This document shows positions 8,537-58,552 of a DNA stretch of 64,000 nucleotides, piece after piece. Numbering within the stretch: the stretch's first letter is position 1; every line of letters begins with the position of its first letter. The position numbers and the translations under genes are program-made. The notes under the pieces were generated by a model. The model saw only the letters and a program-made list of their open reading frames with translations. It had not been told where the DNA came from and ran no database searches. The DNA comes from Candidatus Parcubacteria bacterium. Its GTDB lineage: Bacteria > Patescibacteriota > Patescibacteriia > Patescibacteriales > UBA12465. The DNA lies in NCBI GenBank assembly GCA_023444045.1, contig JAEZRQ010000002.1, positions 76,102 through 140,101 of the forward strand. Reading direction: 5' to 3'.

Positions 8537-9679
8537 ATGAAAAAAACTAAGCGCCAATTTTTAGAAGGTTCAGAGGCAATCGCTTTAACTATTAAAGAAA
8601 TTGCCCCTCAGGTAGTAAGTGCCTACCCGATTACTCCACAAACACATATTGTTGAAGACCTATCTAAATTTAAAGCTAATGGGCAAGCAAAATATGAATA
8701 TGTAAGAGCTGAAAGTGAATTCGCGGCCGCTTCAATTGTTTTAGGGGCTAGTGCCACTGGAGTACGTACTTACAGTGCTACCTCATCTCAAGGATTGCTA
8801 CTGATGGCTGAGGTAATTTACAATATTTCTGGCATGAGATTGCCGGTCGTGATGACTGTGGCTAACAGAGCAGTATCAGCGCCGATTAATATTTGGAATG
8901 ATCATAGTGACATAATGGGACTACGTGACGCTGGTGCGATTTTGTTTTTCGCTGAAACTCACCAAGAAGCAATTGACCAGCATGTTTTAGCTTACAAGAT
9001 AGCCGAAAAACTATCATTGCCAGTCTTTGTTAATGTTGATGGTTTTATTCTAACCCACTCCTATGAAGCTTGTGAAATTCCAGAGAGAAAATTAATAAAA
9101 AAGTTTTTACCGGACTACCAAGCGACTAAAGGAGAAATTCTTGACCCTAAAAATCCGGTAACTCTAGGGATGTTTGCTGGGCCAAATTATTATTTTGGTT
9201 TTAGAAAAAAATTACAAGACGATTTACTCTCCAGCACTACTTTAATTGAAAAAGAATATCTTAATTGGAAAAAAATCTTTAATCCAGAAAAAAAAGATAA
9301 GGCTGTTATAATAGACTCTGGTTTATTAGAGTTTTATGGCAATAAGAATCCTAAAACAGTAATTATCACCTTAGGAACACTTACCGGAACAGTTAAATCA
9401 CTGATTGATAATTCAAAAAATAAAACACTGGCTGTTTTAAAAATAAAATGCTATCGCCCTTTCCCAGCTGAACAGATTAAAAAAGTTTTGCGTGGGGTTA
9501 AAAATATAATTGTTTTAGAAAAAACCTACGGCTTAGGATATCAACCGCCTATTCTTCTAGACTTAAGCGCCGCCTTATTTAATGAAAACATAAAAATATT
9601 TTCTGAGGTTGTCGGCCTCGGCGGTAAAGACATTACTGAAAAAGAAATTAACCAAATAATTAAAAAATATGAAAAATAA
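8537..9679 (+). CDS. porA: POR alpha subunit
   Basis: AYPITPQT motif, 380 aa, operon context. Confidence 0.85.
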   Translation: MKKTKRQFLEGSEAIALTIKEIAPQVVSAYPITPQTHIVEDLSKFKANGQAKYEYVRAESEFAAASIVLGASATGVRTYSATSSQGLLLMAEVIYNISGMRLPVVMTVANRAVSAPINIWNDHSDIMGLRDAGAILFFAETHQEAIDQHVLAYKIAEKLSLPVFVNVDGFILTHSYEACEIPERKLIKKFLPDYQATKGEILDPKNPVTLGMFAGPNYYFGFRKKLQDDLLSSTTLIEKEYLNWKKIFNPEKKDKAVIIDSGLLEFYGNKNPKTVIITLGTLTGTVKSLIDNSKNKTLAVLKIKCYRPFPAEQIKKVLRGVKNIIVLEKTYGLGYQPPILLDLSAALFNENIKIFSEVVGLGGKDITEKEINQIIKKYEK

Positions 9680-10748
9680 TATTTATAAGAAGATAGTTTT
9701 TATTTTTGGTTTTTTATTCTTAATATCCATCGCTCAACCAATTAACGCTGCCATAGAGATAGAGGATGTAAAATTTACCCCACAAATAGGAATTCCGGGA
9801 TCAGAATTTCAACAAGGCAAAGCCGTAGAGGTTGGAGGGGTTAGCGTTAAAGGAGAAAATAAGGTTTTAACAGCTAATCTAATATCCAGATATGTTAATT
9901 CCTTTTATTCTTGGGGCTTATCAATCCTTGGGATTTTAGCCGTTTTAATTTTGATGACTGGGGGAATTTTATGGTTAACATCTAGAGGTGATAACGGACA
10001 AATAGAAAAAGCTAAGAAGATGATTAGTGGTAGTTTATTTGGTTCTTTATTATTATTAGGAGCTTGGTTTATTTTAAATACCATTAACCCAGATTTAGTT
10101 AAGCCGGCGAGTATTGAAATCACTACTATAAATAAAAAAAGTATAGATACGAGTGATTTTTTAGATGAAGCTGAAAAATTTAAATTCGTCTGTTTAAGTG
10201 GGAGTTTAACGTGTGCTAACACAACCCCGCCGACAGTAAATGTAGACATCCAAGCTTGTTATGATAAATATGGCTCCCATGATTGTAAGTATCCTGAAAA
10301 GGCTTGGTGTTGCGGACTAAACTCTGATTCTGAAGAAAAGGCTAACGCTCTTTGTGTAGGAAAACAAAATGGCACACCTTGTCAGATAAATGAAACTGCT
10401 CTTATGGGTACTGGTTATTGCTTTAATAATGTTTGCAAACCTTGTATTTATTTCGGAAAAGAGTGTGACAATAATTACGAATGCTTAGGGGCGAGTTTAT
10501 TAATATGCGGCTACGGAGAAACTTCTGGAGTAGAGTATGCTAGTGATTGTAATTCAGGTTATTGTGCTGGCAGAACTGAAGAGAACGAGGGGGGATCTTG
10601 CGGTCCAAACTTTGAAGGTAGGTGCTACAGTTATACGGGTATTTATTCATGCCCCCAGGATACGAAAGCTTACTCTGGAGGCACACAGTGCGGGAAAGGC
10701 TTAAAGTGTTGTATAAGAACATCTACTGGTGTAACCGGTAATTGGTAA
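9669..10748 (+). CDS. secreted/membrane Cys-rich protein with TrbC/VirB2-type (T4SS-pilin-like) two-helix core
   Basis: Signal peptide (…ISIAQPINA). Hydrophobic helix pair GILAVLILMTGGILWLTSRGDNGQIEKAKKMISGSLFGSLLLLGAWFILNTINPDL. The C-terminal ~190 aa carry more than 20 Cys. The start overlaps the porA stop by 11 nt. Confidence 0.6.
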   Translation: MKNNIYKKIVFIFGFLFLISIAQPINAAIEIEDVKFTPQIGIPGSEFQQGKAVEVGGVSVKGENKVLTANLISRYVNSFYSWGLSILGILAVLILMTGGILWLTSRGDNGQIEKAKKMISGSLFGSLLLLGAWFILNTINPDLVKPASIEITTINKKSIDTSDFLDEAEKFKFVCLSGSLTCANTTPPTVNVDIQACYDKYGSHDCKYPEKAWCCGLNSDSEEKANALCVGKQNGTPCQINETALMGTGYCFNNVCKPCIYFGKECDNNYECLGASLLICGYGETSGVEYASDCNSGYCAGRTEENEGGSCGPNFEGRCYSYTGIYSCPQDTKAYSGGTQCGKGLKCCIRTSTGVTGNW

Positions 10749-10760
10749 AAAATAAAAACT

Positions 10761-11624
10761 ATGAATAATAAATTTCTATCATCAGGACATAATGCTTGCG
10801 CTGGTTGCGGTGAACTATCGGCGGCTCAAGCGGTGATGCGCGGACTCACTAAACAAACCATTATTGCTAATGCGACCGGTTGTTTAGAGGTGACTACTAC
10901 CGCTTACCCTCAAAGCGCTTGGGGATTACCCTGGATTCATTCTTTGTTTGAAAATGCTTCTTCGGTCGCTTCTGGAATACTTGCTGCTTTAAAACAAAAA
11001 AATGATAAAGAAACAAAAGTAGTTGTTTTTGGTGGTGATGGCGGAACCTATGATATCGGTTTTGGACAAATTTCCGGCATGTGGGAAAGAGGAGAAAATA
11101 TTTTATACATTTGCTTTGATACCGAAGCTTATTCTAATACTGGCATCCAAGCTTCTGGGTCCACCCCATATGGTGCCGCAACTACCACCACACCAAACGG
11201 ATTAAATTCTATTGGATCAAACACACAAAAAAAAGATATGATTGGCGTTGCCTTAGCTCATGGTCTAAAATATATCGCTCAAAGTACTGCTGGTTTCCCA
11301 GATGATATTACTAATAAAGTAAAAAGGGCATTAACAATAACTGGCCCTAGTTATATTCAAATATTATCCCCTTGTATTCCCGGTTGGAAAATAAATTACG
11401 ATGAAGCTGGTGAGATGGGTAAGTTAGCCGCCCAAACCGGACTGTACCCACTCCTTGAATATATTGACGGGAAATTAACTTCATCAAATATTAAAGAGGG
11501 GTTTAAAAATAAGCCTGTTGCTGACTATCTATTAAAACAGGGTCGTTTTAAACATTTAAAAGAAGAGGAAATAACGGTTATTCAAAAATTAGCTGATGAA
11601 AATATTTTAAAATGTAAAATATGA
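10761..11624 (+). CDS. porB: POR beta subunit (TPP-binding)
   Basis: GHNACAGCGE and the GGDGGTYDIG TPP motif. Confidence 0.85.
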   Translation: MNNKFLSSGHNACAGCGELSAAQAVMRGLTKQTIIANATGCLEVTTTAYPQSAWGLPWIHSLFENASSVASGILAALKQKNDKETKVVVFGGDGGTYDIGFGQISGMWERGENILYICFDTEAYSNTGIQASGSTPYGAATTTTPNGLNSIGSNTQKKDMIGVALAHGLKYIAQSTAGFPDDITNKVKRALTITGPSYIQILSPCIPGWKINYDEAGEMGKLAAQTGLYPLLEYIDGKLTSSNIKEGFKNKPVADYLLKQGRFKHLKEEEITVIQKLADENILKCKI

Positions 11625-12961
11625 AAAAAATATTAATCTCTTTTATTTTTGTTATATCAGTATTCTTTGTTTTTAGCGCTACTCAAGCTTCAGCTGCCTG
11701 CTATTGGGTAAAAAAAGAAACATATTATGATACAGTAAAAAGAGAAACCGTTATTAAGGGTGGTTGCGCTGCCATACAAACAGAAAAAAGTGATAGCAGC
11801 TGCTCTGGTACCAAACCTAAATATGACTCATCTGATGGGATTGCTCGGGTGGCTGTCTGTTGTTGCGATAAGAGTGAGGCAAACACTGCAACCGCAAAAG
11901 ATACTTGCTCTTGGCAGATATCGAAATCATATTATGATACTGCCTCTAGAGAAACTGTTAAAACTACTTGCAGTACCGGCACAGCTCTTTACGGTGATAA
12001 CAATTGTTCTACCCCAAAACCAGAAAACAAAACTTCTAATGGAATTGCGGAGACACCTATTTGCTGCTGTAAGGCTGGTGTTACCGCCAAAAGCCAAACA
12101 AAAGCTGCTCCTAGATTTATAATGCCAGAGTTTCAAATAAAAATTCCTGGCCTTAATAAACTAAGTGATGTAAGTTGTGCTAATGGAGTCTGTAAGATAC
12201 CGTGGATATCAGAATATACTTTTGCCGTGTATGAATACGGCCTATCTATTGCGGGAATTTTAGGTGTTTTAATCCTGATGGCGGCCGGTCTTCTCTGGAT
12301 TGTTTCAGGCGGCGATCAAAACAAAATAACCAAAGCTAAAAAAATGATTTTTGGCAGCATAGTCGGTTTAATTATACTTGTCGGAGCAAATTTACTTCTA
12401 ACAAATATAAATCCCGACTTAGCTGAGTCAAAAACTATTAATATTGGTTATGTAGAAAGAATTGAATTAGAGAAAGATGTTGATATTATGGTGGTTGGTG
12501 GTGTAACTGGTTATTTAGCTGGTTGTAAAGCTGCTAAAAATGGGGATTTATCAGTTTGCGAAGCTTATGGAAACGCTGAGCCAGGAGGATTGATTGATGC
12601 CCCAGGGAAAAAAGGCACCATCAGGATTAAAGCGGATGTCTACCAAAAATATCAAGCGGTCATGGAATGCGTTCGTCAAAAAAATAATGGTCAAGATTTG
12701 TTTGTAATCAACGAAGCGTTTCGTTCGGCTGCTGAGCAAATCCGCTTAAAGGAACAAGGATACCCCGCCGCAACTCCATGCTGCTCAAATCACAGCTCTG
12801 GACAAGCAATGGATATCCACCGCAAAGATGGTAATAAAATGACTTGGGAATATAATATATCTTCTGGCTTAAAAGAATGCATGAATGCTCAAGGTCTATA
12901 TGCAAACCTTAACAAAGCCCCTTATGATGAACCTTGGCATTGGTCACCAACCGGAAAATAA
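11621..12961 (+). CDS. Cys-rich repeat + T4SS-pilin-like core + C-terminal M15 (VanY/LAS-type) peptidase fusion protein
   Basis: Signal peptide, then two internal Cys-rich repeats (CYWVKKETYYDTVKRETV…VCCC and CSWQISKSYYDTASRETV…ICCC). The helix pair is paralogous to the one in 9669..10748. The C-terminus has SNHSSGQAMDI and EPWHW, which look like metal ligands of D-Ala-D-Ala carboxypeptidase-type M15 enzymes. ATGA overlap with porB. Confidence 0.65.
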   Translation: MKKILISFIFVISVFFVFSATQASAACYWVKKETYYDTVKRETVIKGGCAAIQTEKSDSSCSGTKPKYDSSDGIARVAVCCCDKSEANTATAKDTCSWQISKSYYDTASRETVKTTCSTGTALYGDNNCSTPKPENKTSNGIAETPICCCKAGVTAKSQTKAAPRFIMPEFQIKIPGLNKLSDVSCANGVCKIPWISEYTFAVYEYGLSIAGILGVLILMAAGLLWIVSGGDQNKITKAKKMIFGSIVGLIILVGANLLLTNINPDLAESKTINIGYVERIELEKDVDIMVVGGVTGYLAGCKAAKNGDLSVCEAYGNAEPGGLIDAPGKKGTIRIKADVYQKYQAVMECVRQKNNGQDLFVINEAFRSAAEQIRLKEQGYPAATPCCSNHSSGQAMDIHRKDGNKMTWEYNISSGLKECMNAQGLYANLNKAPYDEPWHWSPTGK

Positions 12962-13410: not shown

Positions 13411-15225
13411 TTAATTATTTGTTAAATTAGGCCTTAAGTCAACTAAGCGCAATTGCGCTTCCCGGCGCCCATTAAATTCGTTTATTTCTAAATAATAGAC
13501 AGCATCAACCAAATCACCAACCGAAACAGCTTTATACTCCTGAGCGGAACCGAAAGAAATTGCCCAAATTCCTTTAGCGAAATTTTTCTCAGCGGATGAT
13601 AAACGAAATTTAATATGTTGATTATCAAATCCCAGGACTACGATTTCATCAACCCTTAAGCGATAGCTAACGAATTTCGGTTGTTGGTTATTCTGTCCAT
13701 AGGGAGCCAGCAGAAGGGTCTCCTCAATTAAATTTAAATTAATATCATCAATACTTAACTCCGCCTCAATTCTAAGACGTGGTGATAACTCCTTGCCACT
13801 TAATTCCCTCTTGGCAATAGTTAGAATTTTCTCTTTAAATTTTTCCAAACGCTCTTCGCTCTCCACCGAAAAACCACAAGCCATTGGGTGCCCACCATAC
13901 TTATCTAAAAATTCTGAAGCCTCATTGATACTGGCAATTAAATTTAATTCTTCAATTGAACGGCCCGAAGCTTTAAAAGAAGTTTTTGTTTTTCCATCTT
14001 CCTCCTCAGTAATTCTAGAAATAATTAAAGTTGGTCGGTAATATTTTTCACAAATTCGACCAGCCACCAAGCCAATAACCCCTTCATTCCAAATTTGATC
14101 ACAACTAGCCATGCCAATAATAATTGGCGGGATATTATTAGGGTCTATCTGCTCCTCCACTTGAAAAATAATATCTTCGGTAATTTTTTGGCGATCGGTA
14201 TTTCTTTGATTAAGCTCTGCCGCTAAATCTGCAGCATCTATTTCGTTATCGGTAGTTAAAAGAGCAAAAGCATTATTGGCGTGACCCAAACGACTAGCCG
14301 CATTTAAACGAGGTCCTATTTGCCAACCAACATTCCAAGCTTCTAACTTCTTGTTATTACCGCCCTTAGAGAGCTTGATTAATTCATTAAGCCCTAAACG
14401 GCGCCCCTGATTTAAAAATTTAAGTCCCTGTTTTACTAACAATCTATTTTCGCCCAATAAAGATACCATATCAGCGATGGTGCCAACTGCTACTAAATCT
14501 AAACACTTCTCAATAATTAGTTTCTTTTGCGGAGTTGATATTTTTGCCTTATAAACTAAAGCACTAACCAGTTTAAAAGAGACCCCGACTCCAGCTAAAT
14601 ATGGCCAGGGGTATGAATCATTTTTATCTGCTGGATTAATATATAGACATTGAGGCAGGTCACTTTCCGCTTCCGGTAAAGTATGGTGATCGGTGACAAT
14701 AATATCCAGTCCATTATTTTTTGCATAAGCCACTTCTTCTTTGTTTCTAATACCATTATCTACTGTAATAAGCAGTGAAGCCCCCTGCTTAATTAACTGA
14801 TCAATTGCACTGATATTTAAGCCATAGCCTTCACTCACTCTATCAGGCAGATAAACCTCTACTTTAGCTTGTAATATTTTTAAAGTTTCAAAAAGGATGG
14901 CTGATGAAGTAACACCGTCAGCATCATAGTCACCATAGACAATAATCTTCTTTCCCTCTTTTATATTATTAATAATAAGATCAACTGCTGCGGCCATATC
15001 ACGAAATAAAAAAGGATTGTAGAAACTTAGATCTGGTACGCCGGCAATATCTAATACTTTTTCACTTGGCAAAATATCATATAAAAAAGACTTAATCGCT
15101 TCTTCCTCCTTGATATCCCTGTTATAGAGCAACTGTAAAATCGTTTTAGATAGCCCAAGATTTTGATTCAAAAAACCATCTGGAGCAGCTTCATATAATT
15201 GCCATTTTTTAGAAACTTGTATCAT
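13411..15225 (-). CDS. recJ: single-stranded-DNA-specific exonuclease RecJ
   Basis: DHH family motifs (DYDADGVTS, VTDHH) and 604 aa of RecJ-like architecture. Confidence 0.9.
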   Translation of the reverse strand: MIQVSKKWQLYEAAPDGFLNQNLGLSKTILQLLYNRDIKEEEAIKSFLYDILPSEKVLDIAGVPDLSFYNPFLFRDMAAAVDLIINNIKEGKKIIVYGDYDADGVTSSAILFETLKILQAKVEVYLPDRVSEGYGLNISAIDQLIKQGASLLITVDNGIRNKEEVAYAKNNGLDIIVTDHHTLPEAESDLPQCLYINPADKNDSYPWPYLAGVGVSFKLVSALVYKAKISTPQKKLIIEKCLDLVAVGTIADMVSLLGENRLLVKQGLKFLNQGRRLGLNELIKLSKGGNNKKLEAWNVGWQIGPRLNAASRLGHANNAFALLTTDNEIDAADLAAELNQRNTDRQKITEDIIFQVEEQIDPNNIPPIIIGMASCDQIWNEGVIGLVAGRICEKYYRPTLIISRITEEEDGKTKTSFKASGRSIEELNLIASINEASEFLDKYGGHPMACGFSVESEERLEKFKEKILTIAKRELSGKELSPRLRIEAELSIDDINLNLIEETLLLAPYGQNNQQPKFVSYRLRVDEIVVLGFDNQHIKFRLSSAEKNFAKGIWAISFGSAQEYKAVSVGDLVDAVYYLEINEFNGRREAQLRLVDLRPNLTNN

Positions 15226-32529: not shown

Positions 32530-32553
32530 GCGGACAGTTGAACGACTGTCCGC
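32530..32553 (-). repeat. fourth copy of the GUUCAA-loop hairpin (no ribozyme attached), followed by UUCCUUUCC
   Basis: Minus strand reads GCGGACAG-UCGUUCAA-CUGUCCGC then UUCCUUUCC. The loop and trailing motif match the three cassette hairpins, but the stem sequence is completely different. Confidence 0.6.
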
Positions 32554-32575: not shown

Positions 32576-32956
32576 CTACTCTTTACTCTTTTTTTCTCTT
32601 TCTATGCGCCTTCGTTCGCAGAAGCGGCAGTTACCCTTGTGAACCATAGCCACGCCCCTGTCAACTTTAGTTACGATATATTCGCAGCCATCTAAATAGA
32701 TAACCTTGTATGATTCTGGGTTAAATCCATACCTATCAATATAATAAGGATATGTGATAGAATCACTTACTGCGACCATAGAATCACTTACTGCGACCAT
32801 AGAATCACTTACTACTTCTATAGTATTTATCTCCGCAGAATCATTCTTGTCTGACAAATATACCACCTTATACGACGGCACATCCGAACATCCCACACAA
32901 AAAAATGCTAAAATAAAAATTATATTTTTCATTTTTTTAATTTTTAAATTCTCCAA
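32576..32956 (-). CDS. small lipoprotein with VSDSMVA tandem repeat (probable true start ATG at 32932)
   Basis: MKNIIFILAFFCVGC is a lipobox-like signal. The track start at 32956 is a TTG. The basic C-terminus contains CRFC. Confidence 0.6.
   Translation of the reverse strand: MENLKIKKMKNIIFILAFFCVGCSDVPSYKVVYLSDKNDSAEINTIEVVSDSMVAVSDSMVAVSDSITYPYYIDRYGFNPESYKVIYLDGCEYIVTKVDRGVAMVHKGNCRFCERRRIEREKKSKE
32757..32815. repeat. 21-bp tandem repeat x ~2.8 inside the lipoprotein gene
   Basis: atagaatcacttactgcgacc occurs twice, followed by the partial copy atagaatcacttactac. It encodes the in-frame VSDSMVA repeats. Confidence 0.9.
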
Positions 32957-33063
32957 AGCACTATTGCCTGGATTATTCTGAAACTAATTAATTTAATAAG
33001 ATTCAAAATAATCCAAACAATAATTTGAGAATAAAAAATGAAAAGATTTTTTTTAAAGAACAT

Positions 33064-33116
33064 TTCCTTTTCGTCGTTTCCGACTCATCAGCCAAGATAC
33101 ACATCTTGGGAAGGAA
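33064..33116 (-). ncRNA. type III hammerhead self-cleaving ribozyme (copy A)
   Basis: Minus strand reads UUCCU-UC^CCAAGAU-GUGU-AUCUUGG-CUGAUGA-GUCG-GAAA-CGAC-GAAA-AGGAA. The full catalytic core is present (CUGAUGA, GAA, A15.1-U16.1, C17). Stems I and II are closed and stem III is open. Confidence 0.9.
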
Positions 33117-33222
33117 GAGCAGATTTGAACTATCTGCTCTCTATTAAACTATTTTATCCATCCGATTTCGCTCTTAGGATTTAAGGCGCTCAATTTAATG
33201 TCAAGAGGGGACAAAATAATAT
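33117..33222 (-). repeat. intergenic cassette A: conserved ~80-nt module + GUUCAA-loop hairpin
   Basis: The module starts immediately after the stop codon (TAG|ATATTATTTTGTCCCCTCTTGACATTAAATTGAGCGCCTTAAATCCTAAGAGCGAAATCGGATGGATAAAATA). The hairpin GAGCAGAU-AGUUCAA-AUCUGCUC follows. The module is near-identical to cassette B. Confidence 0.8.
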
Positions 33223-33366
33223 CTATTTTTTTCTTACTACCAAGGCAACAAAAATAATTGACACCACGGCTAATGGAATAACACTAAAATTGTTATTATA
33301 GCCCATGAGATAGTTTAAGCCCCACATGCAAGCAAGACCTAAGATAATAATTATTATTTTTTTCAT
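33223..33366 (-). CDS. 47-aa hydrophobic peptide (below ORF-track cutoff)
   Basis: MKKIIIIILGLACMWGLNYLMGYNNNFSVIPLAVVSIIFVALVVRKK*. The conserved cassette begins directly after its stop codon, exactly as it does after the 529-aa gene. Confidence 0.5.
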   Translation of the reverse strand: MKKIIIIILGLACMWGLNYLMGYNNNFSVIPLAVVSIIFVALVVRKK

Positions 33367-33412
33367 TTTATTTGCCTACTCTATTACAGGTTTTCGGCTT
33401 CCCCTGATTTTT

Positions 33413-36400
33413 TTATACTAGTCCGGCTCTGCGCAGAGCGTCGGCTAAGAGGCCATCGCTTGAAGTTTCGCTAGACTCACCATCCACCTCATCTTTACCT
33501 TCTTCATATTGGTAATTTCCAAAATGATAATCATATACATAATATTTGACATCATTTGGGTCGGCCCCTACGAAGAAATCTAAGCCACCAAGCTCCGTCA
33601 GGTGGTCGTACACTCGCGCCCGTCCGCAGTGCCCGACAATATGTTCGTCGAGTTTTTCGGCGGGAAGATTTTCTACATTCTTGACAAATTCAAGTGTGCG
33701 ATTTAAATCTCCACCGAAAGCGTTTAAAAGATAGCGAGGTAACTTGTTTCTTTTTTCAAGCTCCTCTCTTTCTTTTTGACGCACTTTGAACAATTGACTC
33801 AGCTCCGCAATCATTTCTTCTATCTCACGACAGATATTATTAACGTCCGTAAAATCACCTTTTTGCAAAGCTGATTTTACTTCCGAAAGCTGATTGCGAA
33901 TTTCGCGGATTTTCTCGGAAATAAGTTCAGGCTCAACCTCAGTTAAAGTTTTTTCAAAACTTTCTTCGGCATTAATAATTAAAGCATTAGCTTTCTCATA
34001 TTCAACACGAAGATTGTTTTTTATTTCCTCAGCTTTAGTTTCCATCCCTCCTACTCGCTCGGAAGAATTTTCAAGAGTTAACCCCTCTATCATTTCCATT
34101 CTAAGCATTTCAAGGTGATTTTTCAGCGCATTTCCCAGCTCGGTCAGCCCCCAACAATTACGAAAGATTTCTTCATTGGGGATCGTCAAAGCTTCAGAAA
34201 CTTGATTGTTAAAATTACTAACCAAATTTCTTTTCGCTCTTTCAATTTGCTCCTGACGAGCTTTTTCTATTCTTGCTCGGTGTTCACCCAAGGTTTGAGT
34301 ATAACCATCGCAAGAAAGTTTTAGCTCGCGACCACTGGGGAGCGAAACACTCTCCGGTTTGGTTTCAAAAATAAAATTTTCTGAGACCTCAATCTTGGCA
34401 ATAAAATCACCATAATAATGAGTATATACAACAGAAAATTCTTTATCTTCAATCTCTATAACTAAAGGATTTTTTTCCTCAATAGAAGCTATCTCCTCTG
34501 GTGAAATTAATTGAGATAAATTTATTCTTAAATCATCTTGACTTATCTCTTTCTCAAGGAGATTTTCAAGTTGAGTAAAACCAAGTACCTTCCAAGGCTC
34601 CAATACTTTGCAGTATTGTTCGCCAATAACTTCGCTATTGTTTTTTGATTCAATAGCTCCGCCACTACGCGCCCAATATGCATCATATTGGTTCATAATT
34701 TCTGTGTTATCATGATAGAGATTTCTTACAACTTCCGAAGAAGCGTATCTACTCATCATATTGTTCACAAAAATTTTGAAAGCCTCAGCGCTCCACGGAG
34801 CAGTCTTTGCCACCCGAGCAATTTCCATATCGTTAAAAACCGTAATATGGTCTTCAACAACACAATTTTGCTCATCATCCCAATGAAGGTTTTCAACCTT
34901 CTCTGAGACCAGATGTGGCGCCACTTCAGCTAACCAGGCTGGGTCCACTTTTGATGCCATACTTACCAAATTAAGAGTCATAGACCCTCTTCTGGTAGCA
35001 ATCTGCAGATCAAAAGGGATTCCTACGATCCAATCAGGAGTAGATCTCTCTACCACTGAACTAGACCCCAACTCACGGTCAGTGTCATCTCCGTTGCGAT
35101 ATGACCCATACTGGTTTTTATATAGATGGTCTACCATACCGGCACAAACAGCTTTCAGGATGTTTTCCCTTTTACCATTTGTACCAAAACGGAAATGTCC
35201 TTTCAAGGCCTCAGATAAAAGATGTCGAATTTCTTTGGCGCGATAAAAATCACGCAAAGCAATCCCTTTTTCTTTCATCTCGACTTCACTCATTGTGCGA
35301 GATATTTCCCACACTTTGAGCTGAGCCATGATGTCAGACTCTCTTTCATCCGGCACCATACCACGCCAATCTGGGCGGTCGGGTCGATTGCGACTCGGCG
35401 GAGGAACAGTAATGCCGTCCATCTCCATAATCGCAGCAACAGTCAAGACGTCACTTACGACGCCAAGACGATCAGCTTCAATTAACATCCGACCATATTT
35501 CACCGAAACCGGAAGCTTGTTTACCAAGCGACCAATTCCAGTTACCTTGCCTTCGCTAGTCATACAGCCCAAACCAATTAAGGTCTTGCGAGCATCACTG
35601 ATGTCTGATTTAGCGGGCTGATGGAAAAATTCCATCATCTCCATATCAAACCCAGCGATTGCCAGACGCAAAACTGTTTGGTCCAAGCGTTTACGCAGAA
35701 TCTCGGCCACCGGGAAGTCGGGCCTGTTTGAACTCGAGCAGTGATCAATATAGATTCCTGCTTTTGTTCTTCCTGCGCGCCCCTTTCTTTGCTTCGAATC
35801 GGCCAGTGAAATTGGTTTCAGGTATAAACCCTCAACTCCATCAACTAGCTCAATCCGACGTTCAAGTCCGGAATCCACGACGGCATCAATGTCATCAATT
35901 GTCACACTGGTTTGCGCAACATTTGTCGACACTACAACCTTCGGCTTACCATAGTGCGCAAAGCACTTGGCTTGCTCATCTGGTGTGAGTTGTCCGTGAA
36001 GTGGCAGGACTACCGCCGAAACATTCAACTGCGCCAGGCGGTTAATAGTCTCATTGATTTCCTGCTGTCCGGGTTGGAAAACCAGAACATTGTGACCTTC
36101 AGCAACTAAAGTTGCAACATCGGACTCAATGTTATAACCGGCCGTTTTTTCCTCAACCGTGAATGTTCGCCCTGGGACAGAAATGATTGGTGCATTATTA
36201 AAAAATGCACTCAACTTTTCCGACTCCAAAGTCGCACTCATGAGAACTACTTTCATAGTTGAGCCAGTGGCAATTTGAGATTTCACCCAGGCCACCAGAA
36301 CTTCCATGTTTTCGTTCCACTCATGCACCTCATCGAGGACGAGAATGCCTCGATTCTGACCCATAAGCTCACGCACAAGTGCGAGGCCATCGGTGCAAAA

Positions 36401-36688
36401 TAGACAACGGGTTGCGGAACTATCCGCTCGTTCTACCGCGGTGCGGTAGCCGATGGTAACCCCAATTTTTTCGCCCATCTCATAAGCCACGCGAGCAGCA
36501 ACAGAACGGGCGGCGAGTCGGCGGGGTTGAGTCACGACTAAGTCATAACCTGCCTCCAGCAAGTACTGCGGTACTTGCGTGGATTTCCCCGCTCCAGTTT
36601 CGGCCGTAATGACCGTTACTGGATTTTCTTTGATGCTCTTCAGAATCTCATTCCGAAACGCATCAATGGGTAATATTGTTTTTTTCAT
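33413..36688 (-). CDS. DEAH-box (HrpA/HrpB-like, SF2) ATP-dependent RNA helicase with long coiled-coil C-terminal extension
   Basis: Motifs I ETGAGKST, Ia TQPRRLAARSVA, II DEVH, III SAT, V TNVAQTSVTI and VI QRKGRAGR. About 450 aa of K/E-rich C-terminal region follow. Confidence 0.85.
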   Translation of the reverse strand: MKKTILPIDAFRNEILKSIKENPVTVITAETGAGKSTQVPQYLLEAGYDLVVTQPRRLAARSVAARVAYEMGEKIGVTIGYRTAVERADSSATRCLFCTDGLALVRELMGQNRGILVLDEVHEWNENMEVLVAWVKSQIATGSTMKVVLMSATLESEKLSAFFNNAPIISVPGRTFTVEEKTAGYNIESDVATLVAEGHNVLVFQPGQQEINETINRLAQLNVSAVVLPLHGQLTPDEQAKCFAHYGKPKVVVSTNVAQTSVTIDDIDAVVDSGLERRIELVDGVEGLYLKPISLADSKQRKGRAGRTKAGIYIDHCSSSNRPDFPVAEILRKRLDQTVLRLAIAGFDMEMMEFFHQPAKSDISDARKTLIGLGCMTSEGKVTGIGRLVNKLPVSVKYGRMLIEADRLGVVSDVLTVAAIMEMDGITVPPPSRNRPDRPDWRGMVPDERESDIMAQLKVWEISRTMSEVEMKEKGIALRDFYRAKEIRHLLSEALKGHFRFGTNGKRENILKAVCAGMVDHLYKNQYGSYRNGDDTDRELGSSSVVERSTPDWIVGIPFDLQIATRRGSMTLNLVSMASKVDPAWLAEVAPHLVSEKVENLHWDDEQNCVVEDHITVFNDMEIARVAKTAPWSAEAFKIFVNNMMSRYASSEVVRNLYHDNTEIMNQYDAYWARSGGAIESKNNSEVIGEQYCKVLEPWKVLGFTQLENLLEKEISQDDLRINLSQLISPEEIASIEEKNPLVIEIEDKEFSVVYTHYYGDFIAKIEVSENFIFETKPESVSLPSGRELKLSCDGYTQTLGEHRARIEKARQEQIERAKRNLVSNFNNQVSEALTIPNEEIFRNCWGLTELGNALKNHLEMLRMEMIEGLTLENSSERVGGMETKAEEIKNNLRVEYEKANALIINAEESFEKTLTEVEPELISEKIREIRNQLSEVKSALQKGDFTDVNNICREIEEMIAELSQLFKVRQKEREELEKRNKLPRYLLNAFGGDLNRTLEFVKNVENLPAEKLDEHIVGHCGRARVYDHLTELGGLDFFVGADPNDVKYYVYDYHFGNYQYEEGKDEVDGESSETSSDGLLADALRRAGLV

Positions 36689-36794
36689 TTTTTTATTTTT
36701 TTGGTTTTATCAACTACTCAGTAATTTGAGTAACTAATAGAGCCAAAAAAATAGGTAAAATGATAAACCTACTAACTATTTATTTTTTAACGTT

Positions 36795-36847
36795 CTCCTT
36801 TTCGTCGTTTCCGACTCATCAGCTAGGATGCACATCCTAGGAAGGAA
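36795..36847 (-). ncRNA. type III hammerhead self-cleaving ribozyme (copy B)
   Basis: UUCCU-UC^CUAGGAU-GUGC-AUCCUAG-CUGAUGA-GUCG-GAAA-CGAC-GAAA-AGGAG. Stem I has two compensatory base-pair changes relative to copy A. Confidence 0.9.
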
Positions 36848-36951
36848 GAGCAAGTTTGAACGACTTGCTCTTTTTTGAACTTATTTTATCCATCCGATTT
36901 CGCTCTTAGGATTTAAAGCGCTCAATTTAATGTCGAGAGGGGACAAAATAT
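36848..36951 (-). repeat. intergenic cassette B: conserved ~80-nt module + GUUCAA-loop hairpin
   Basis: TAA|ATATTTTGTCCCCTCTCGACATTAAATTGAGCGCTTTAAATCCTAAGAGCGAAATCGGATGGATAAAATA, then the hairpin GAGCAAGU-CGUUCAA-ACUUGCUC (compensatory relative to A). Confidence 0.8.
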
Positions 36952-38541
36952 TTACGCCTGGAGTTTATCGTAGGCTCCAGCAAACCCGCGGCCAGCGTCA
37001 CCGTAAGCCTGATATAGGCCATTGGCAGCTGCCCAGCCGTTGGGATACGTCGGGCGACCGTCAACCATCGCAACTTCACCGAGAAATTCGGCAACAACCG
37101 GTTTAGGTCCAGACAGGTTTACCTTATCTGGGAAACGTTTGTCGCCTTTGGCAAGATATGCGGTTCCAGTCATCACCCCCGCCTCAACGAGAAAAGGAAT
37201 AGGACCTAAATCGCGAACATCAGCCACCTGAATGTCGCCCAATGTTACGGTTCTGTCCGGATTTTTCAGCAGCTTCACAGCCGCTTCAATCTCTGTCATT
37301 GCTTCAGCCTCCGATGAAACGTTTTCGCGTTTCATGATTTCCGGAAGACGCATAGCGAGCACTTCAGCTGCAGTAACACCAGGACACTGTCCGGCGTAAG
37401 CAGCGGCCAAGCAATGGTCGGCGGCGGCGATTACCCTGTCTTCTTGCGTTGGTTCAATTCTCAAAAATTTCAGGAGTTGACCCAAACTGGAAGCTTCCAG
37501 GTATTGAGCTGGTGGCAAACCGAATCCAGCGTTACCAGGATTATGATGGTCGCACTGAGCGACAATCGTAAGTCCAGCCGCGGCAGACGGAGCACATTCA
37601 AATATGATGCACTCCAGGCAATCCGTAGATTCACCTGCTTCGCTATCTATCTGATATCCGTCCGCCCGGTAAGCCGTCATGGGGTTACATTTTTCACCAC
37701 CCATGGTTGCGGTAGCTAAAAGTAAACCGTGCTGAATCGCAATTTTTCTGGCCCGTTGCTCCTCGATGTCGGGAGCACCAAAAATGATTACTCGCGGACA
37801 AAATGTTTCGTGGATGAAATTTTCCAAAGCGGTTTGGTCTGCGTATCCACCCCAGAAGGCATTAGTTTTAGTCGTAAGTCCTCCAGTCCAACCGCCAGGA
37901 AATTTGGCATCAATAGCCTTCACCACAGCAGGTGTGCCATAATAATTACTTTCACCATCTCCTGATAAAATCAAAAGATTTTGGCGAGTGCCCTGGGTTT
38001 CAAAAACTCTGTCAGCAATCGGCGCCGTTTTAGAATGTGCACAACGCACAACAACTAATCCGTTCGTGAATTTTTCCTGAGCCGCGACTGCCCGCTCGGC
38101 TTCAATCTCCTGCTCTGAAGTAATCCCCTGGCAAGAGCGGTCGAAAGCGCGCACTTGACGTATTTCTTCGATGGAAGCACCAGAGGCAACAAGCCCCGGG
38201 ATATACCCTTCGTCGTTAATGGCAATAAGAATATCTTCGCGGGTCGGTTTTACACCGATTAATTCAAGCACCTGCAGAATACTCTGCGGATTTCCGCTAA
38301 AATCACCATGATGATCAATTATCAAAGCATTAGTTGGCAGCTCAATATCAACCACCAATTCAATGAGAACAGGGATTTTACCAGCAGTTGTAACAGCTTT
38401 AATTGCGTCACTATAAGCTGAAGCTTTCGCACCCCAACCTAAATTGCCATTTATAACCTCGGCGCTAACCTCGGTTAAAATTTTTTCAATTTGCATCATT
38501 TCAGCATCTTTGCCTCCTAAAAAAAATACGAACTTTTTCAT
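36952..38541 (-). CDS. hypothetical two-domain protein with duplicated DHH-type motif (possible phosphoesterase)
   Basis: 529 aa and very GC-rich. IIDHHGD is at aa 74-80 and CDHHNPG at aa 330-336, each preceded by a similar beta-strand-like start (FVFFLGGKDAEM and VIIFGAPDIEEQ). Family not recognised. Confidence 0.6.
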   Translation of the reverse strand: MKKFVFFLGGKDAEMMQIEKILTEVSAEVINGNLGWGAKASAYSDAIKAVTTAGKIPVLIELVVDIELPTNALIIDHHGDFSGNPQSILQVLELIGVKPTREDILIAINDEGYIPGLVASGASIEEIRQVRAFDRSCQGITSEQEIEAERAVAAQEKFTNGLVVVRCAHSKTAPIADRVFETQGTRQNLLILSGDGESNYYGTPAVVKAIDAKFPGGWTGGLTTKTNAFWGGYADQTALENFIHETFCPRVIIFGAPDIEEQRARKIAIQHGLLLATATMGGEKCNPMTAYRADGYQIDSEAGESTDCLECIIFECAPSAAAGLTIVAQCDHHNPGNAGFGLPPAQYLEASSLGQLLKFLRIEPTQEDRVIAAADHCLAAAYAGQCPGVTAAEVLAMRLPEIMKRENVSSEAEAMTEIEAAVKLLKNPDRTVTLGDIQVADVRDLGPIPFLVEAGVMTGTAYLAKGDKRFPDKVNLSGPKPVVAEFLGEVAMVDGRPTYPNGWAAANGLYQAYGDAGRGFAGAYDKLQA

Positions 38542-38659
38542 TTTTTTATTTTTTTACCTCCTAACACATGTTCGGATTATTCTAAAACCCAAAATAATAA
38601 TTGAGATTTAAAATAATCCAAACAAATGCTTGATAAAAAAATATTTTATTTAAATGAAC

Positions 38660-38712
38660 TTCCTTTTCGTCGTTTCCGACTCATCAGCCAAGACACACAT
38701 CTTGGGAAGGAA
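38660..38712 (-). ncRNA. type III hammerhead self-cleaving ribozyme (copy C)
   Basis: UUCCU-UC^CCAAGAU-GUGU-GUCUUGG-CUGAUGA-GUCG-GAAA-CGAC-GAAA-AGGAA. The core is intact, with one U-G wobble in stem I. Confidence 0.9.
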
Positions 38713-38735
38713 GAGCAGATTTGAACTATCTGCTC
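38713..38735 (-). repeat. GUUCAA-loop hairpin (copy C)
   Basis: GAGCAGAU-AGUUCAA-AUCUGCUC sits directly 5' of hammerhead C. Here the upstream ~200 nt differ from the A/B module. Confidence 0.75.
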
Positions 38736-38939: not shown

Positions 38940-39185
38940 TTATGACCAAACTTCTTTGATAATTTCAATCGGAATGCCAAGAATATCTAAATCTGATGGG
39001 GTTAACCCTTCAGATTTTAATTTCTTAGCTGTAGCTAAGGCCTTAGATCTCTCCGATTTTATTCGGAAATCTTCGACCTCTCTGCTGCAAGCATCACAGT
39101 AGCCGTCAGTGCCGCCCATATAATGGCCAGTCGCATTAGCTCCACAGCGCTTACAGGAACCAAAATATCCCGCCATAGCTTTCAA
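38940..39185 (-). CDS. small Zn-ribbon protein (CxxC…CxxC) with helical C-terminus
   Basis: CKRC…17 aa…CDAC. The track start is a TTG, and an in-frame ATG at 39176 gives 78 aa. Confidence 0.55.
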   Translation of the reverse strand: MKAMAGYFGSCKRCGANATGHYMGGTDGYCDACSREVEDFRIKSERSKALATAKKLKSEGLTPSDLDILGIPIEIIKEVWS

Positions 39186-39940
39186 AAATCTTACTATAAA
39201 AATTTCTAGAAGCTATAGCTGATTTTTTAAAATTTAAGGAACAACTCTTCCGAAGAAGTTTCTAAGTCCCAAACTTGTTCAAGGTTTAGAGGCTTAGCCG
39301 ATCTCTTCGTAAGAAAACGGTTGAAGAAACGATTGTTCTTGGAACTTACTCGTCGCTTACATTACGCAAGCTAATTGGGCCACCAAATACTTAATCAAAG
39401 TCTTTCGTGAGTTCCGGTTTGCAACGGACCTAACTACTTAACTAATTTCTTCTACCCACTTTTGTGGAGCAAACTAACAGAGCTGTAAATCTTAGGACAT
39501 GGACTCTCTCCGTCCACCTCAATCTCCTAAAATTTTCAATCACCTGTTTGGTGCTGCTTATTCCCTAAGCAACTTGGGAAGATTATGTACTAATCTTTTT
39601 TATGAATAGAATAGGCAATCATGAAGGGGAAAATTGCTTTATTAACTGAGTTAAACTAGGCATGGGGCGTCTAGTCATCTTAATCTCAATGTTTTTTGGC
39701 AGTTTATATATTGAGCTTCAACTTAAGTCTTGTGGCTAAAGCAGAGCTAAACCATCTTTATTCCTCTTCATAACTGCCTATTCTAAAAAAAGATAATAAA
39801 TGGAAACGGGTTAAACCTCATATAAGGAGATAAGCCGCTTTCACCTATTATCTTTATAGTTGAATGCTTTGACTTAATATCTGGCTCTCTCCTTCCATTT
39901 ATTAATTGTTTCTTTTGTTTGAATGTACTACCATCTTAAC
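39186..39940 (-). ncRNA. ~750-nt ORF-free, hairpin-rich leader / candidate large non-coding RNA of the island operon
   Basis: No ORF of 60 aa or more occurs in any frame. It lies downstream of a near-consensus minus-strand promoter. Many strong local helices are visible, for example an 11-bp AAAUUUUAGGA/UCCUAAGAUUU stem, an 11-bp AAUAAAUGGAA/UUCCAUUUAUU stem, and UUCG- and GNRA-like loops. The strand is inferred from the promoter and operon context. Confidence 0.4.
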
Positions 39941-39947
39941 TGTCTAA

Positions 39948-39976
39948 AGTATAGCATTATTTTATACTATTGTCAA
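39948..39976 (-). promoter_or_regulatory. near-consensus sigma70-type promoter driving the island operon
   Basis: Minus strand reads TTGACA (39976..39971), a 17-nt spacer, then TATACT (39953..39948). The -35 is embedded in the palindrome TATTGtCAATA. Confidence 0.55.
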
Positions 39977-57407: not shown

Positions 57408-57730
57408 GCCTCGGTAGCTCAGTGGTAGAGCAAAGGACTGAATTTCGGTCCGTCCTGTAGAAACACAGGAATGAAAATCGGGTGAATTCGGAGAAACCTT
57501 AATTATTAAAATTTTTAATAAAAGGCAATTCCGAGCCAAGCCTTAACTGGGATAAAATGTTAAGGAAGGTGTAGAGACTAGCGGGTGAGCCCAACAATAA
57601 CCCCGCCGCGAGCGCCCGACTCCGTCTTTGTAGAAATATAAACGGAGATGATATAGTCCGATCCTTAAGGAAACTTAAGAAAATACTAAGGAAAATCCTT
57701 GTGTCGTCAGTTCGATTCTGACCCGGGGCA
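57408..57730 (+). tRNA. tRNA-Phe (GAA) interrupted by a group I intron in the anticodon loop
   Basis: Exon 1 is 57408..57439 and exon 2 is 57691..57730. Joined, they give a 72-nt cloverleaf with acceptor GCCUCGG/CCGGGGC, anticodon loop CU|GAAAA and T-loop UUCGAUU. Confidence 0.85.
57440..57690 (+). ncRNA. group I self-splicing intron (251 nt)
   Basis: P1 forms between the exon end GGACU and the internal guide GGUCC, with a U.G wobble at the splice site. The intron ends in G. There are P7-like strands AGACUA…AUAUAGUC and a terminal CUUAAG-GAAA-CUUAAG hairpin. The core resembles bacterial tRNA group I introns. Confidence 0.8.
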
Positions 57731-57791: not shown

Positions 57792-58481
57792 TTGTTTATG
57801 CGTTCTGATAAAAATTTAGCAATAAAACTTAGAAGGTTAGGTAAATCTTATAGTCAAATAAGTGATGTTTTAGCTATACCAAAAAGCACCTTAAGCTCTT
57901 GGCTAAAAGATATTAATATCTCTCAAAAAGCTCAAGACAAAATTCAATCTAGAGTAAACTCAACAAGCGTAGCTAAACTTATTGAGAGAAATAAAAATCA
58001 AACAAAATTGGCAGCAGAAAGGCACACTAAGATTTATGAATTAGCTAAAAAAGAGTCCCAAGAATTAATGTTTAACCATTTATTTGTGATAGGTGTGGCA
58101 TTATACTGGGGGGAGGGCTATAAACAAGGCGCTAATGGAAGCAAATGGAAGAGTATTGATTTTGCAAATTCTGACCCAGAAATGATTAAGATAATGATGT
58201 TGTTTTTTGTTAAGTTTCTAGACTTAAAAGAATCTGACATTAAAATCCAAATCATGCTTCATAATCCTAAAAACACTAAGAAATCTATAAATTTTTGGTC
58301 AGAATTAACAAAAATTCCTGAAAATAATTTTACTAGCACTTGTTACTCAATTAGTTCTGCTAGCACCAACAAACAAAAGAGAAAGCTGGAACACGGAACT
58401 GTACATTTAAGAATAAATAATGTACAAAAATTCTTTCGTTTAATTGGTTGGATTGATGGATTAAAACAAAAATTTTTATAA
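57792..58481 (+). CDS. HTH + single-motif LAGLIDADG-like homing endonuclease family protein (probable start ATG 57798)
   Basis: N-terminal HTH (LGKSYSQISDVLAIPKSTLSSWLK) and the LAGLIDADG-like block VIGVALYWGEGYK. The stop codon abuts the first base of tRNA-Pro. Confidence 0.6.
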   Translation: MFMRSDKNLAIKLRRLGKSYSQISDVLAIPKSTLSSWLKDINISQKAQDKIQSRVNSTSVAKLIERNKNQTKLAAERHTKIYELAKKESQELMFNHLFVIGVALYWGEGYKQGANGSKWKSIDFANSDPEMIKIMMLFFVKFLDLKESDIKIQIMLHNPKNTKKSINFWSELTKIPENNFTSTCYSISSASTNKQKRKLEHGTVHLRINNVQKFFRLIGWIDGLKQKFL

Positions 58482-58552
58482 CGGGGTGTCGTATACCGGT
58501 AGTACGCATGCTTTGGGAGCATGTTGACTGGGTTCAATTCCCAGCACCCCGA
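58482..58552 (+). tRNA. tRNA-Pro (UGG)
   Basis: Acceptor CGGGGUG/CACCCCG, anticodon loop UUUGGGA, T-loop UUCAAUU. Confidence 0.9.

Follow-up and report, generated by a model that had tools for sequence, protein, structure and literature searches.

A minus-strand operon in the chromosome of an ultra-small Candidatus Parcubacteria bacterium (assembly GCA_023444045.1, contig JAEZRQ010000002.1, positions 76,102 to 140,101; this 64,000-nucleotide (nt) stretch is hereafter the window, and coordinates count from its first letter) carries three type III hammerhead ribozymes, with cleavage sites after C38706, C36841 and C33110 when the minus strand is read directly. The sites separate a leader with a 78-amino-acid (aa) open reading frame (ORF), the gene of a 529-aa DHH-type phosphodiesterase, the gene of a 1091-aa DEAH/RHA RNA helicase with a 47-aa ORF, and a short last gene. 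Ribozymes and their accompanying hairpins are present, intact and conserved, their stems covary, and they lie at gene junctions. From these features we infer co-transcription of the window operon, cleavage in vivo and an effect on RNA stability: the transcript would probably cut itself while it is being made, giving four linear RNAs with structured ends and independent fates.

The initial annotation of this locus, made from the DNA letters, had proposed two ribozyme-defined RNA units, 38705..36841 (1865 nt) and 36840..33110 (3731 nt), as either end-structured mRNAs or circularizable RNAs. These boundaries are exact. They agree with the C17 positions and with a repeat finder, which returns a 99-nt family of three same-strand copies, 76–89% identical, at spacings of 3731 and 1865 nt. 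The proposed ORF content, one or two ORFs per unit, is also right: unit 1 holds solely the 529-aa ORF, and unit 2 the helicase and the 47-aa ORF. So are the proposed ends as read from the sequence, with the upstream product closing in a 23-nt nGUUCAA-loop hairpin plus UUCCUUC and the downstream product starting at the stem I hairpin. Intact cores, strong covariation, conserved and covarying terminal hairpins, and hammerheads at comparable junctions in relatives bear out the idea of ribozyme-defined units with structured ends. The suggestion that the units circularize fared differently: the end chemistry invoked for it is correct, but comparison with related genomes gives it no support, as described below.

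All three sites have the same layout: a hairpin GAGCAxxx-nGUUCAA-xxxUGCUC, then UUCCUU and C17, then the stem I hairpin, CUGAUGA, GUCGGAAACGAC, GAAA and AGGAR. UUCCUU abuts the upstream 23-nt hairpin without a spacer at each site. The stem I hairpin occurs as CCAAGA-UGUGUR-UCUUGG (sites 1 and 3) or CUAGGAUGUGCAUCCUAG; site 2 reads CUAGGA-UGUGCA-UCCUAG, and its stem (CUAGGA/UCCUAG) is doubly compensated relative to the other two. Stem II is GUCG-GAAA-CGAC, and stem III is closed by AGGAR. The catalytic core (CUGAUGA...GAAA, the A15.1–U16.1 pair and C17) is found in 3/3 copies with every invariant base intact, and covariation and minimum-free-energy folds agree on looped stems I and II and an open stem III. 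RNAfold recovers the upstream hairpin and the full three-way junction at sites 1 and 2; at site 3 the hairpin and stems I and II are recovered and stem III is not. Fold z-scores of the three sites range from -3.3 to -3.9. The core pattern CTGATGAG-N6-30-CGAAA is found three times in the window, against 0.05 expected from shuffled sequence, and 0/100 shuffles reach three.

These ribozymes and those of related loci (numbered with the prefix L) belong to a subclass whose stem I is 6–7 base pairs (bp) long and capped by a UGUGUR loop, and whose 4-bp stem II ends in an NAAA tetraloop. It is represented at 100 loci in viral contigs and at least 120 metagenome loci. Same-subclass hammerheads stand upstream of the DHH gene in L005, L006, L007 and the Saccharibacteria locus L022, on both sides of the helicase gene in L034, upstream of it in L025, and around a 132-aa gene in L073. 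Across 15 cassette-linked copies, 92.9% of alignment cells are paired, compared with 68% in shuffles and 29–55% in controls with slid partners; in 15 of the 17 base pairs both partners have changed, and none of 500 shuffles reaches the observed values.

Four points weigh against self-cleavage into stabilized RNAs. First, the scores of all three sites against the Rfam type III model (RF00008, Hammerhead_3) lie below its gathering score of 48.5 bits (Table 1). This is a limit of the Rfam seed sequences and not of any missing structural feature: the scores fall short because that model rests mainly on viroid, satellite and plant sequences, and a model built from the subfamily itself scores each site above 80 bits. 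Second, the core is substituted in some related copies, CCGAUGA in L073 (550–607) and CUGGUGA in L034 (13915–13972), with stems intact; these two may be slow or inactive, and not every copy of the family need be fast. Third, enrichment of the upstream hairpin across the wider class is modest (Mann–Whitney p = 0.03). Fourth, the stabilizing effect expected of 5′-OH and hairpin ends is extrapolated from other bacteria rather than from Patescibacteria. The sub-threshold Rfam scores would also suit a reading in which the motifs are inactive look-alikes and solely full-length polycistronic RNA exists. We find this scarcely credible in view of the invariant core, the A15.1–U16.1 pair and C17, the strong covariation, and a loop I (UGUGUR) common to well over 100 natural copies. 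Moreover, clustered bacterial hammerheads studied by Perreault et al. cleaved efficiently (PMC3088659).

The upstream hairpin is the second constant part of each site. Its nGUUCAA loop is conserved while its stem covaries, and a second GUUCAA often lies just upstream. Across 122 related hammerheads, 48% have an abutting hairpin, compared with 30% of control windows and 11% of shuffles, and the tails are typically 6–7 nt long. A fourth GUUCAA-loop hairpin follows the last gene of the operon, the only terminator-like hairpin found in a terminator scan (32553..32530), and the hairpin plus 7-nt pyrimidine tail at the ribozyme sites matches its architecture.

Ribozyme and plain hairpin exchange places in the relatives. 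At four positions, L005 1959–2010, L006 2430–2480, and L007 10980–11040 and 14658–14710, a hairpin element (UUCYUUYCCGA...CAGARRAG) stands in for the hammerhead; the four copies share a consensus fold and are preceded by the same nGUUCAA hairpin and pyrimidine tract. RNAalifold folds the element as one long irregular hairpin with GAAA paired to UUUC. A reading of this element (UUCUUUC-CCGAAA-hairpin-UUUCAGAAGAG) as a hammerhead in permuted form, or as a ribozyme of a new type, was rejected because the element leaves no room for stem I. The replacement could be an RNase III-type processing site, a stabilizer or a relic. This swap at orthologous junctions argues that what is selected is the making of well-defined RNA ends at cistron boundaries. 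Common to all these sites, on the simplest view, are hairpin-capped ends made without stopping transcription.

A further structured element of 69 nt precedes two of the three sites (Table 1). It also follows the orthologous gene in L005 (around 1860–1930), L007 (10880–10945), L144 and L145, with a variant in L006, and it folds into a closing stem and two hairpins, in which base changes of L006 and L007 are compensated. Two of its strings, UUAAAU and CCUAAG, resemble strings of the env25 pistol ribozyme. A pistol assignment was rejected: RF02679 gives no match at E values up to 10, and the covarying CYCGA-loop-UYGRG hairpin together with the closing stem makes up an architecture other than the hairpin-pseudoknot of pistol. 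Nor is the GUUCAA hairpin a tRNA T-arm or tRNA-like end, as ARAGORN finds no tRNA and UUCAA is out of register within the 7-nt loop. Two candidate kissing interactions were dropped as inconsistent across copies, one between GUUCAA loops and UUGAAU of the 5′ untranslated region (UTR) hairpins, the other between the loop of the 69-nt block and a hairpin loop (a perfect match in L005 only). On the minus strand of L034, the hairpin upstream of each of three hammerheads (10115–10160, 11718–11765 and 13973–14020) appears to be an H-type pseudoknot, with stem 1 as CAUAGG/CCUAUG, AUGGGU/ACCCAU or CAUGAGU/ACUCAUG and stem 2 as GGAGC/GCUCC or GCAGAU/AUCUGC; both stems covary.

These elements raise the possibility of regulated cleavage. 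Ribozyme folding would then be under the control of a factor that binds the nGUUCAA hairpins or the 69-nt block, perhaps the operon's own DEAH helicase or DHH enzyme, with feedback on the ratio of polycistronic to processed RNA. Loop conservation with covarying stems, the position of the 69-nt block and the presence of an RNA helicase gene in the operon would all fit. The minimum-free-energy folds, by contrast, already consist of hairpin plus ribozyme with no competing fold seen, and we consider such control, which is purely conjectural, improbable.

The locus lies on a bacterial chromosome. A TrmB-like gene flanks it on one side and FtsK (with its membrane domain), MurE and RpoB on the other, with RpoC, RuvC, LepA, RecJ and MurJ also around it. 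European Nucleotide Archive metagenome contigs of up to 291 kb encode the exact 529-aa protein in identical gene order. The nearest named relatives are Patescibacteria metagenome-assembled genomes (Paceibacterota, Minisyncoccia, Moranbacteria and Saccharibacteria), and L007 and L012 are syntenic, with the TrmB-like gene, a long non-coding leader, the cassette, FtsK, MurE and RpoB. No relative of the cassette DHH protein was found in viral contigs, and a phage origin of the cassette was rejected on that ground. Given the housekeeping flanks, the synteny and the missing viral relative, the cassette is therefore a vertically kept chromosomal operon and not a prophage. The GC content of the cassette genes exceeds that of the housekeeping genes around them by about 10 points, both in the window (33413–38541; 48% versus 36–38%) and in L007 (8024–14610), which suggests ancient acquisition or strong coding constraints.

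Chromosomal residence of the genes leaves the history of the ribozymes themselves to be weighed. They might be passengers, phage-type modules that spread by local duplication into spacers and whose cleavage is incidental or mildly harmful. The abundance of the subclass in viral contigs and metagenomes is in keeping with this, the 76–89% identity of the window copies suggests recent duplication, and presence varies: L009 and L013 have no hammerhead, and L005–L007 have none at the junction between the DHH and helicase genes. However, stems keep their pairing through compensated changes within the operon family; the ribozymes are always at gene junctions, in sense orientation and fused to the conserved hairpin; homologous operons carry them too, even in the distant Saccharibacteria (L022); and no viral-contig relative of the DHH protein beside them was found. 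We therefore regard a passenger role as unlikely. Gene structure also changes together with the ribozymes. In L007 a hammerhead lies between separate NrN-like (256 aa) and CDHHNPG (291 aa) genes (8971–10876), and the two halves are fused without a ribozyme in the window (36952–38541), L005 and L006. In these loci, then, gain or loss of the ribozyme goes together with fission or fusion of the gene.

Self-cleavage into linear RNAs would then proceed as follows. A single long minus-strand transcript probably runs from the promoter near 39950 to the terminator-like hairpin near 32530, and the three hammerheads would fold and cut during transcription. Four products would result: an RNA of about 1.2 kb with the leader and the 78-aa ORF, the 1865-nt phosphodiesterase mRNA, the 3731-nt mRNA of the helicase and the 47-aa ORF, and a last mRNA of about 0.6 kb. 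Hammerhead cleavage leaves 2′,3′-cyclic phosphate and 5′-OH ends, and by this established chemistry the same ends would be expected at the window sites. Each upstream product would therefore finish in a stable hairpin and a 7-nt pyrimidine tail with a 2′,3′-cyclic phosphate, a 3′ end like that of a terminator, formed while the polymerase keeps going. Each downstream product would start from a 5′-OH on what remains of the folded ribozyme, with its own UTR hairpin and the shared A-rich start region behind it. Structured 5′-OH ends evade 5′-monophosphate-dependent decay in other bacteria. Each cistron would likely gain its own stability and translation context. The sites would then parallel, in nature, engineered ribozyme insulators as well as the RNase III cutting of phage T7 early mRNA.

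The same ends could in principle serve circularization. The tail UUCCUUC>p of an excised unit would pair with the unit's own 5′ AAGGAR and rebuild the hammerhead, to be sealed by the reverse reaction or by an RtcB-type ligase, for which the end chemistry is suitable. Stem III (UUCCUU/AAGGAA) is identical at all three window sites although stem I of site 2 has diverged; since it was kept while stem I and the upstream hairpins drifted, each mRNA could rebuild a hammerhead across its ends. Cleavage of a type III hammerhead leaves the 5′ strand of stem III on the upstream product and all other parts of the ribozyme on the downstream one. A unit can close on itself through a rebuilt hammerhead only if the tail from its 3′ site pairs with the 3′ strand of stem III at its 5′ site; for all neighbouring pairs, we set this pairing across the unit against the pairing within each ribozyme. 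The window junction helices would be 7 and 6 bp. Among 18 neighbouring metagenomic pairs, 9 are junction-compatible, 1 partial and 8 broken, against a random baseline of 13%; in viral contigs 26 of 41 neighbouring pairs, 0.3–2.6 kb apart, are compatible.

Homologous operons point the other way. Five of their seven neighbouring pairs are broken, with 1–2 bp left (L007, L025, L034 twice and L073), and the two compatible pairs are the window's own. In L007, the closest relative, the U:A of position 16.2/15.2 is replaced by G:C in one ribozyme and by A:U in its neighbour, so that the change is compensated within each ribozyme and mismatched across the unit. Selection therefore appears to preserve ribozymes able to cleave rather than units able to close. 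Elsewhere, local duplication inflates compatibility and predicts just such an excess of compatible metagenomic pairs; in phages, compatibility also reflects the very few stem III sequences in use (CYGU/ACRG). In addition, relatives and the window's fourth site use a plain long hairpin, unable alone to make ligatable ends. No RNA-ligase-like match was found for the operon proteins with Pfam, NCBIfam, PDB or the structural model; the idea that the 529-aa protein conceals a ligase or an enzyme acting on cyclic phosphates was rejected, as its AlphaFold model matches DHH phosphodiesterases only; and none of 18 window ORFs scanned against Pfam is RtcB.

Size also counts against circles. Known hammerhead circles are mostly small and non-coding, whereas the window units are large (1865 and 3731 nt, against 0.2–1.1 kb for small repeated non-coding units), differ from each other and are filled with ORFs. 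The junctions that circles would create, ACUUGCUCUUCCUUC|CCAAGAUGUGUG for unit 1 and AUCUGCUCUUCCUUC|CUAGGAUGUGC for unit 2, would be diagnostic in RNA, both being absent from the DNA searched; a circle of the two units joined would instead look like the genomic sequence of site 1. One 1808-nt Logan contig, L004, carries only the 529-aa gene and was considered as a released RNA; it starts 16 nt inside hammerhead 1 and ends in the 69-nt repeat, and because its ends lie inside repeats they are assembly breaks, not cleavage sites. Nor do the ends of L143–L145 overlap. Clustered bacterial hammerheads have been examined for circular or spliced products and none was found (PMC3088659), so the idea of circles itself is not new, having been raised already in 2011. 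If real, these translatable circles (1.9 kb for DHH, 3.7 kb for the helicase) would be unprecedented: natural, protein-coding circular mRNAs that a bacterium makes by means of ribozymes. That would matter far more than linear processing. The comparative evidence nonetheless speaks against them: circular mRNAs are highly improbable, and linear processing is likely.

Features of the operon are collected in Table 1.

Table 1. Ribozymes, RNA structures, transcription signals and genes of the hammerhead operon (window coordinates)
Feature	Position	Strand	Remarks
Hammerhead ribozyme 1, type III	38658..38715	-	Cleavage after C38706; RF00008 42.2 bits (E 8e-7); subfamily-built model 86.2 bits
Hammerhead ribozyme 2, type III	36793..36850	-	Cleavage after C36841; RF00008 partial, 18.6 bits; subfamily-built model 82.5 bits
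Hammerhead ribozyme 3, type III	33062..33119	-	Cleavage after C33110; RF00008 39.1 bits (E 6e-6); subfamily-built model 87.2 bits
Terminal hairpin 1, GAGCAGAU-AGUUCAA-AUCUGCUC	38713..38735	-	Abuts stem III; from sequence and fold
Terminal hairpin 2, GAGCAAGU-CGUUCAA-ACUUGCUC	36848..36870	-	Compensated changes set its stem apart from those of hairpins 1 and 3
Terminal hairpin 3, GAGCAGAU-AGUUCAA-AUCUGCUC	33117..33139	-	From sequence and fold
Fourth GUUCAA-loop hairpin, followed by UUCCUUUCC	32530..32553	-	Terminator-like; no hammerhead after it
Long irregular hairpin, UUCCUUUCCGAG...CUCAGAGAAGAA	32470..32529	-	Same element takes the place of the hammerhead at equivalent junctions of relatives
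69-nt structured block, copy 1	36882..36950	-	Right after the stop codon of the 529-aa ORF; fold z-score -4.2
69-nt structured block, copy 2	33150..33218	-	97% identical to copy 1; after the stop codon preceding site 3
Likely operon promoter, TTGACA-17 nt-TATACT with TG extension	39948..39976	-	11 of 12 positions matched
Conserved non-coding leader, about 750 nt, GGAGAGAG motifs	39200..39945	-	Blocks shared with L007 and L009
78-aa ORF, two CxxC pairs (zinc-ribbon-like)	38940..39176	-	Last feature before hammerhead 1
Long 5′-UTR hairpin, GGAUUAUUUU...AGAAUAAUCC	38560..38620	-	Upstream of the 529-aa ORF; direct repeat D5
529-aa double DHH-type phosphodiesterase	36952..38541	-	Only ORF of unit 1
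1091-aa DEAH/RHA RNA helicase	33413..36688	-	HrpA/Prp43-like core, residues 1–620; 470-aa C-terminal extension without assignment
DUF805b RNA motif (RF02914)	33373..33407	-	49.7 bits (gathering score 35.6); immediately 5′ of the 47-aa ORF
47-aa hydrophobic ORF	33223..33366	-	Second ORF of unit 2
ORF of the last unit	32576..32956	-	126 aa in the ORF list, 111 aa in the L001 gene call

The promoter is the sole strong promoter-like site on the minus strand upstream of the cassette, with no strong internal one, and the TTGACA...TAxACT block is kept in L007 and L009. The leader behind it, the 5′ part of the first cleavage product, has no long ORF and matches no Rfam family. Blocks recur in it across genomes, for example AAUGGAAGGAGAGAGCC and GGAGAGAGUYCAU (L007 6900–8020, L009 9060–9700), and one or more of its stems carry a compensated change; possibly, hammerhead 1 frees the leader as a large structured RNA along with the 78-aa ORF. 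That ORF is called as a gene in L001–L003 and matches no family. A second copy of the long 5′-UTR hairpin lies at 32970–33040, and the hairpin is also found in L005, L006, L007, L143 and L144. All four cistrons share an A-rich start context, AAAAAAUAAAAAAAUGAAAAA (repeat family D2; 32908–32945, 33333–33379, 36664–36701 and 38517–38554), their proteins start with MKK or MKN, and a clear Shine–Dalgarno sequence is seen solely before the 529-aa ORF.

The 529-aa protein combines two DHH-type halves. Residues 2–204 are NrN-like (PADLOC families C3a116 and DHH_CorA; PDB NrN 9lq9, E 4.5e-26); NrN is a phosphodiesterase that accompanies CorA-type type III CRISPR systems. Residues 250–529 contain the CDHHNPG motif and are 71–84% identical across genomes, with no Pfam or PDB sequence match, a PDB profile search included. 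The AlphaFold model has a pLDDT of 92, and Foldseek places it closest to NrN (TM 0.80), followed by GdpP, NrnA and RecJ-like proteins. For the helicase, Pfam identifies DEAD, Helicase_C and HA2_C domains; PDB HrpA 6zwx matches with E 1.6e-72, and the NCBIfam HrpA model with E 6e-94, below that model's cut-off. The 47-aa ORF has no homologue in related loci, and the DUF805b motif beside it inside unit 2 has no counterpart there. Within the last ORF, a 21-nt tandem repeat in three copies (32757–32826) encodes a repeated VSDSMVA peptide. Elsewhere in the window, a group I intron (RF00028, 96 bits, 57430–57680, plus strand) lies 42 nt past tRNA-Met in a cluster that runs Ile, Met and then Pro at 58482, with a 229-aa ORF (57792..58481) after the intron.

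Nearly all known bacterial hammerheads are in phages, beside small genes without known function. A 2017 review by de la Peña lists the prokaryotic role as open and phage-linked (PMC6155905). The arrangement described here is not new as a kind: gene-flanking clusters and both the linear and the circular reading date from 2011, when Perreault et al. reported multiple hammerheads flanking single genes or short gene blocks in prophages (PLoS Comput Biol, PMC3088659). They proposed processing into gene- or operon-length mRNAs and raised spliced or circular products, neither of which was detected; tandem bacterial hammerheads cleaved polycistronic constructs of about 2 kb efficiently in vitro, and the ribozymes of A. 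tumefaciens also cleaved in vivo after cloning. Both systems have several same-sense hammerheads, 0.3–4 kb apart, that bracket genes, and the subclass found here is common in viral contigs. The window differs in being a non-phage chromosomal operon that is syntenic across Patescibacteria, with a DHH protein that lacks viral relatives, and in flanking large conserved RNA-metabolism genes instead of small non-conserved ORFs. The nGUUCAA hairpin at every site and the exchange of ribozyme for plain long hairpin in relatives are new as well. With a fixed chromosomal site and recognizable RNA-metabolism enzymes, the locus is a cleaner case for bacterial hammerhead function. Its orthologous junctions, which carry a hammerhead or a plain long hairpin and always after the same conserved hairpin, form a compact natural test bed for the effect of ribozyme-made ends on mRNA stability.

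Like the type III hammerheads of RF00008, the window ribozymes keep stem III open and stems I and II closed, have a CUGAUGA...GAAA core and would cut after C17; they differ as a bacterial and phage subclass under the gathering threshold, with its UGUGUR loop and NAAA tetraloop. Retrozymes, viroids, and obelisk-like and ambivirus-like RNAs likewise consist of hammerhead-bounded units with 5′-OH and cyclic-phosphate ends, and the window ends could pair as theirs do. In all these RNAs, however, the units are repeats of one sequence, mostly small and non-coding, in which junction pairing is automatic, whereas the window units are different protein-coding genes in a DNA operon, their pairing is not conserved in relatives, and there is no context of rolling-circle replication, reverse transcriptase or ligase.

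Closer parallels are found in systems that process polycistronic mRNA. Phage T7 early mRNA is cut by RNase III between cistrons into discrete mRNAs whose 3′ hairpins slow exonucleases. Here, too, one transcript would yield discrete hairpin-ended mRNAs, and the long hairpins of the relatives resemble such RNase III sites; the difference is that the window cut would be made by the RNA itself and would leave cyclic-phosphate and 5′-OH ends. The engineered hammerhead insulator RiboJ is described as raising transcript abundance (PMC6206723), and ribozyme-assisted polycistronic expression as giving independent expression of cistrons (PMC9872166). As in RiboJ-type insulators, a hammerhead at the cistron boundary would strip the upstream context and leave a structured 5′-OH end. 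The window sites differ in being natural rather than synthetic, and in placing upstream of the cut a hairpin that would cap the 3′ end of the preceding RNA.

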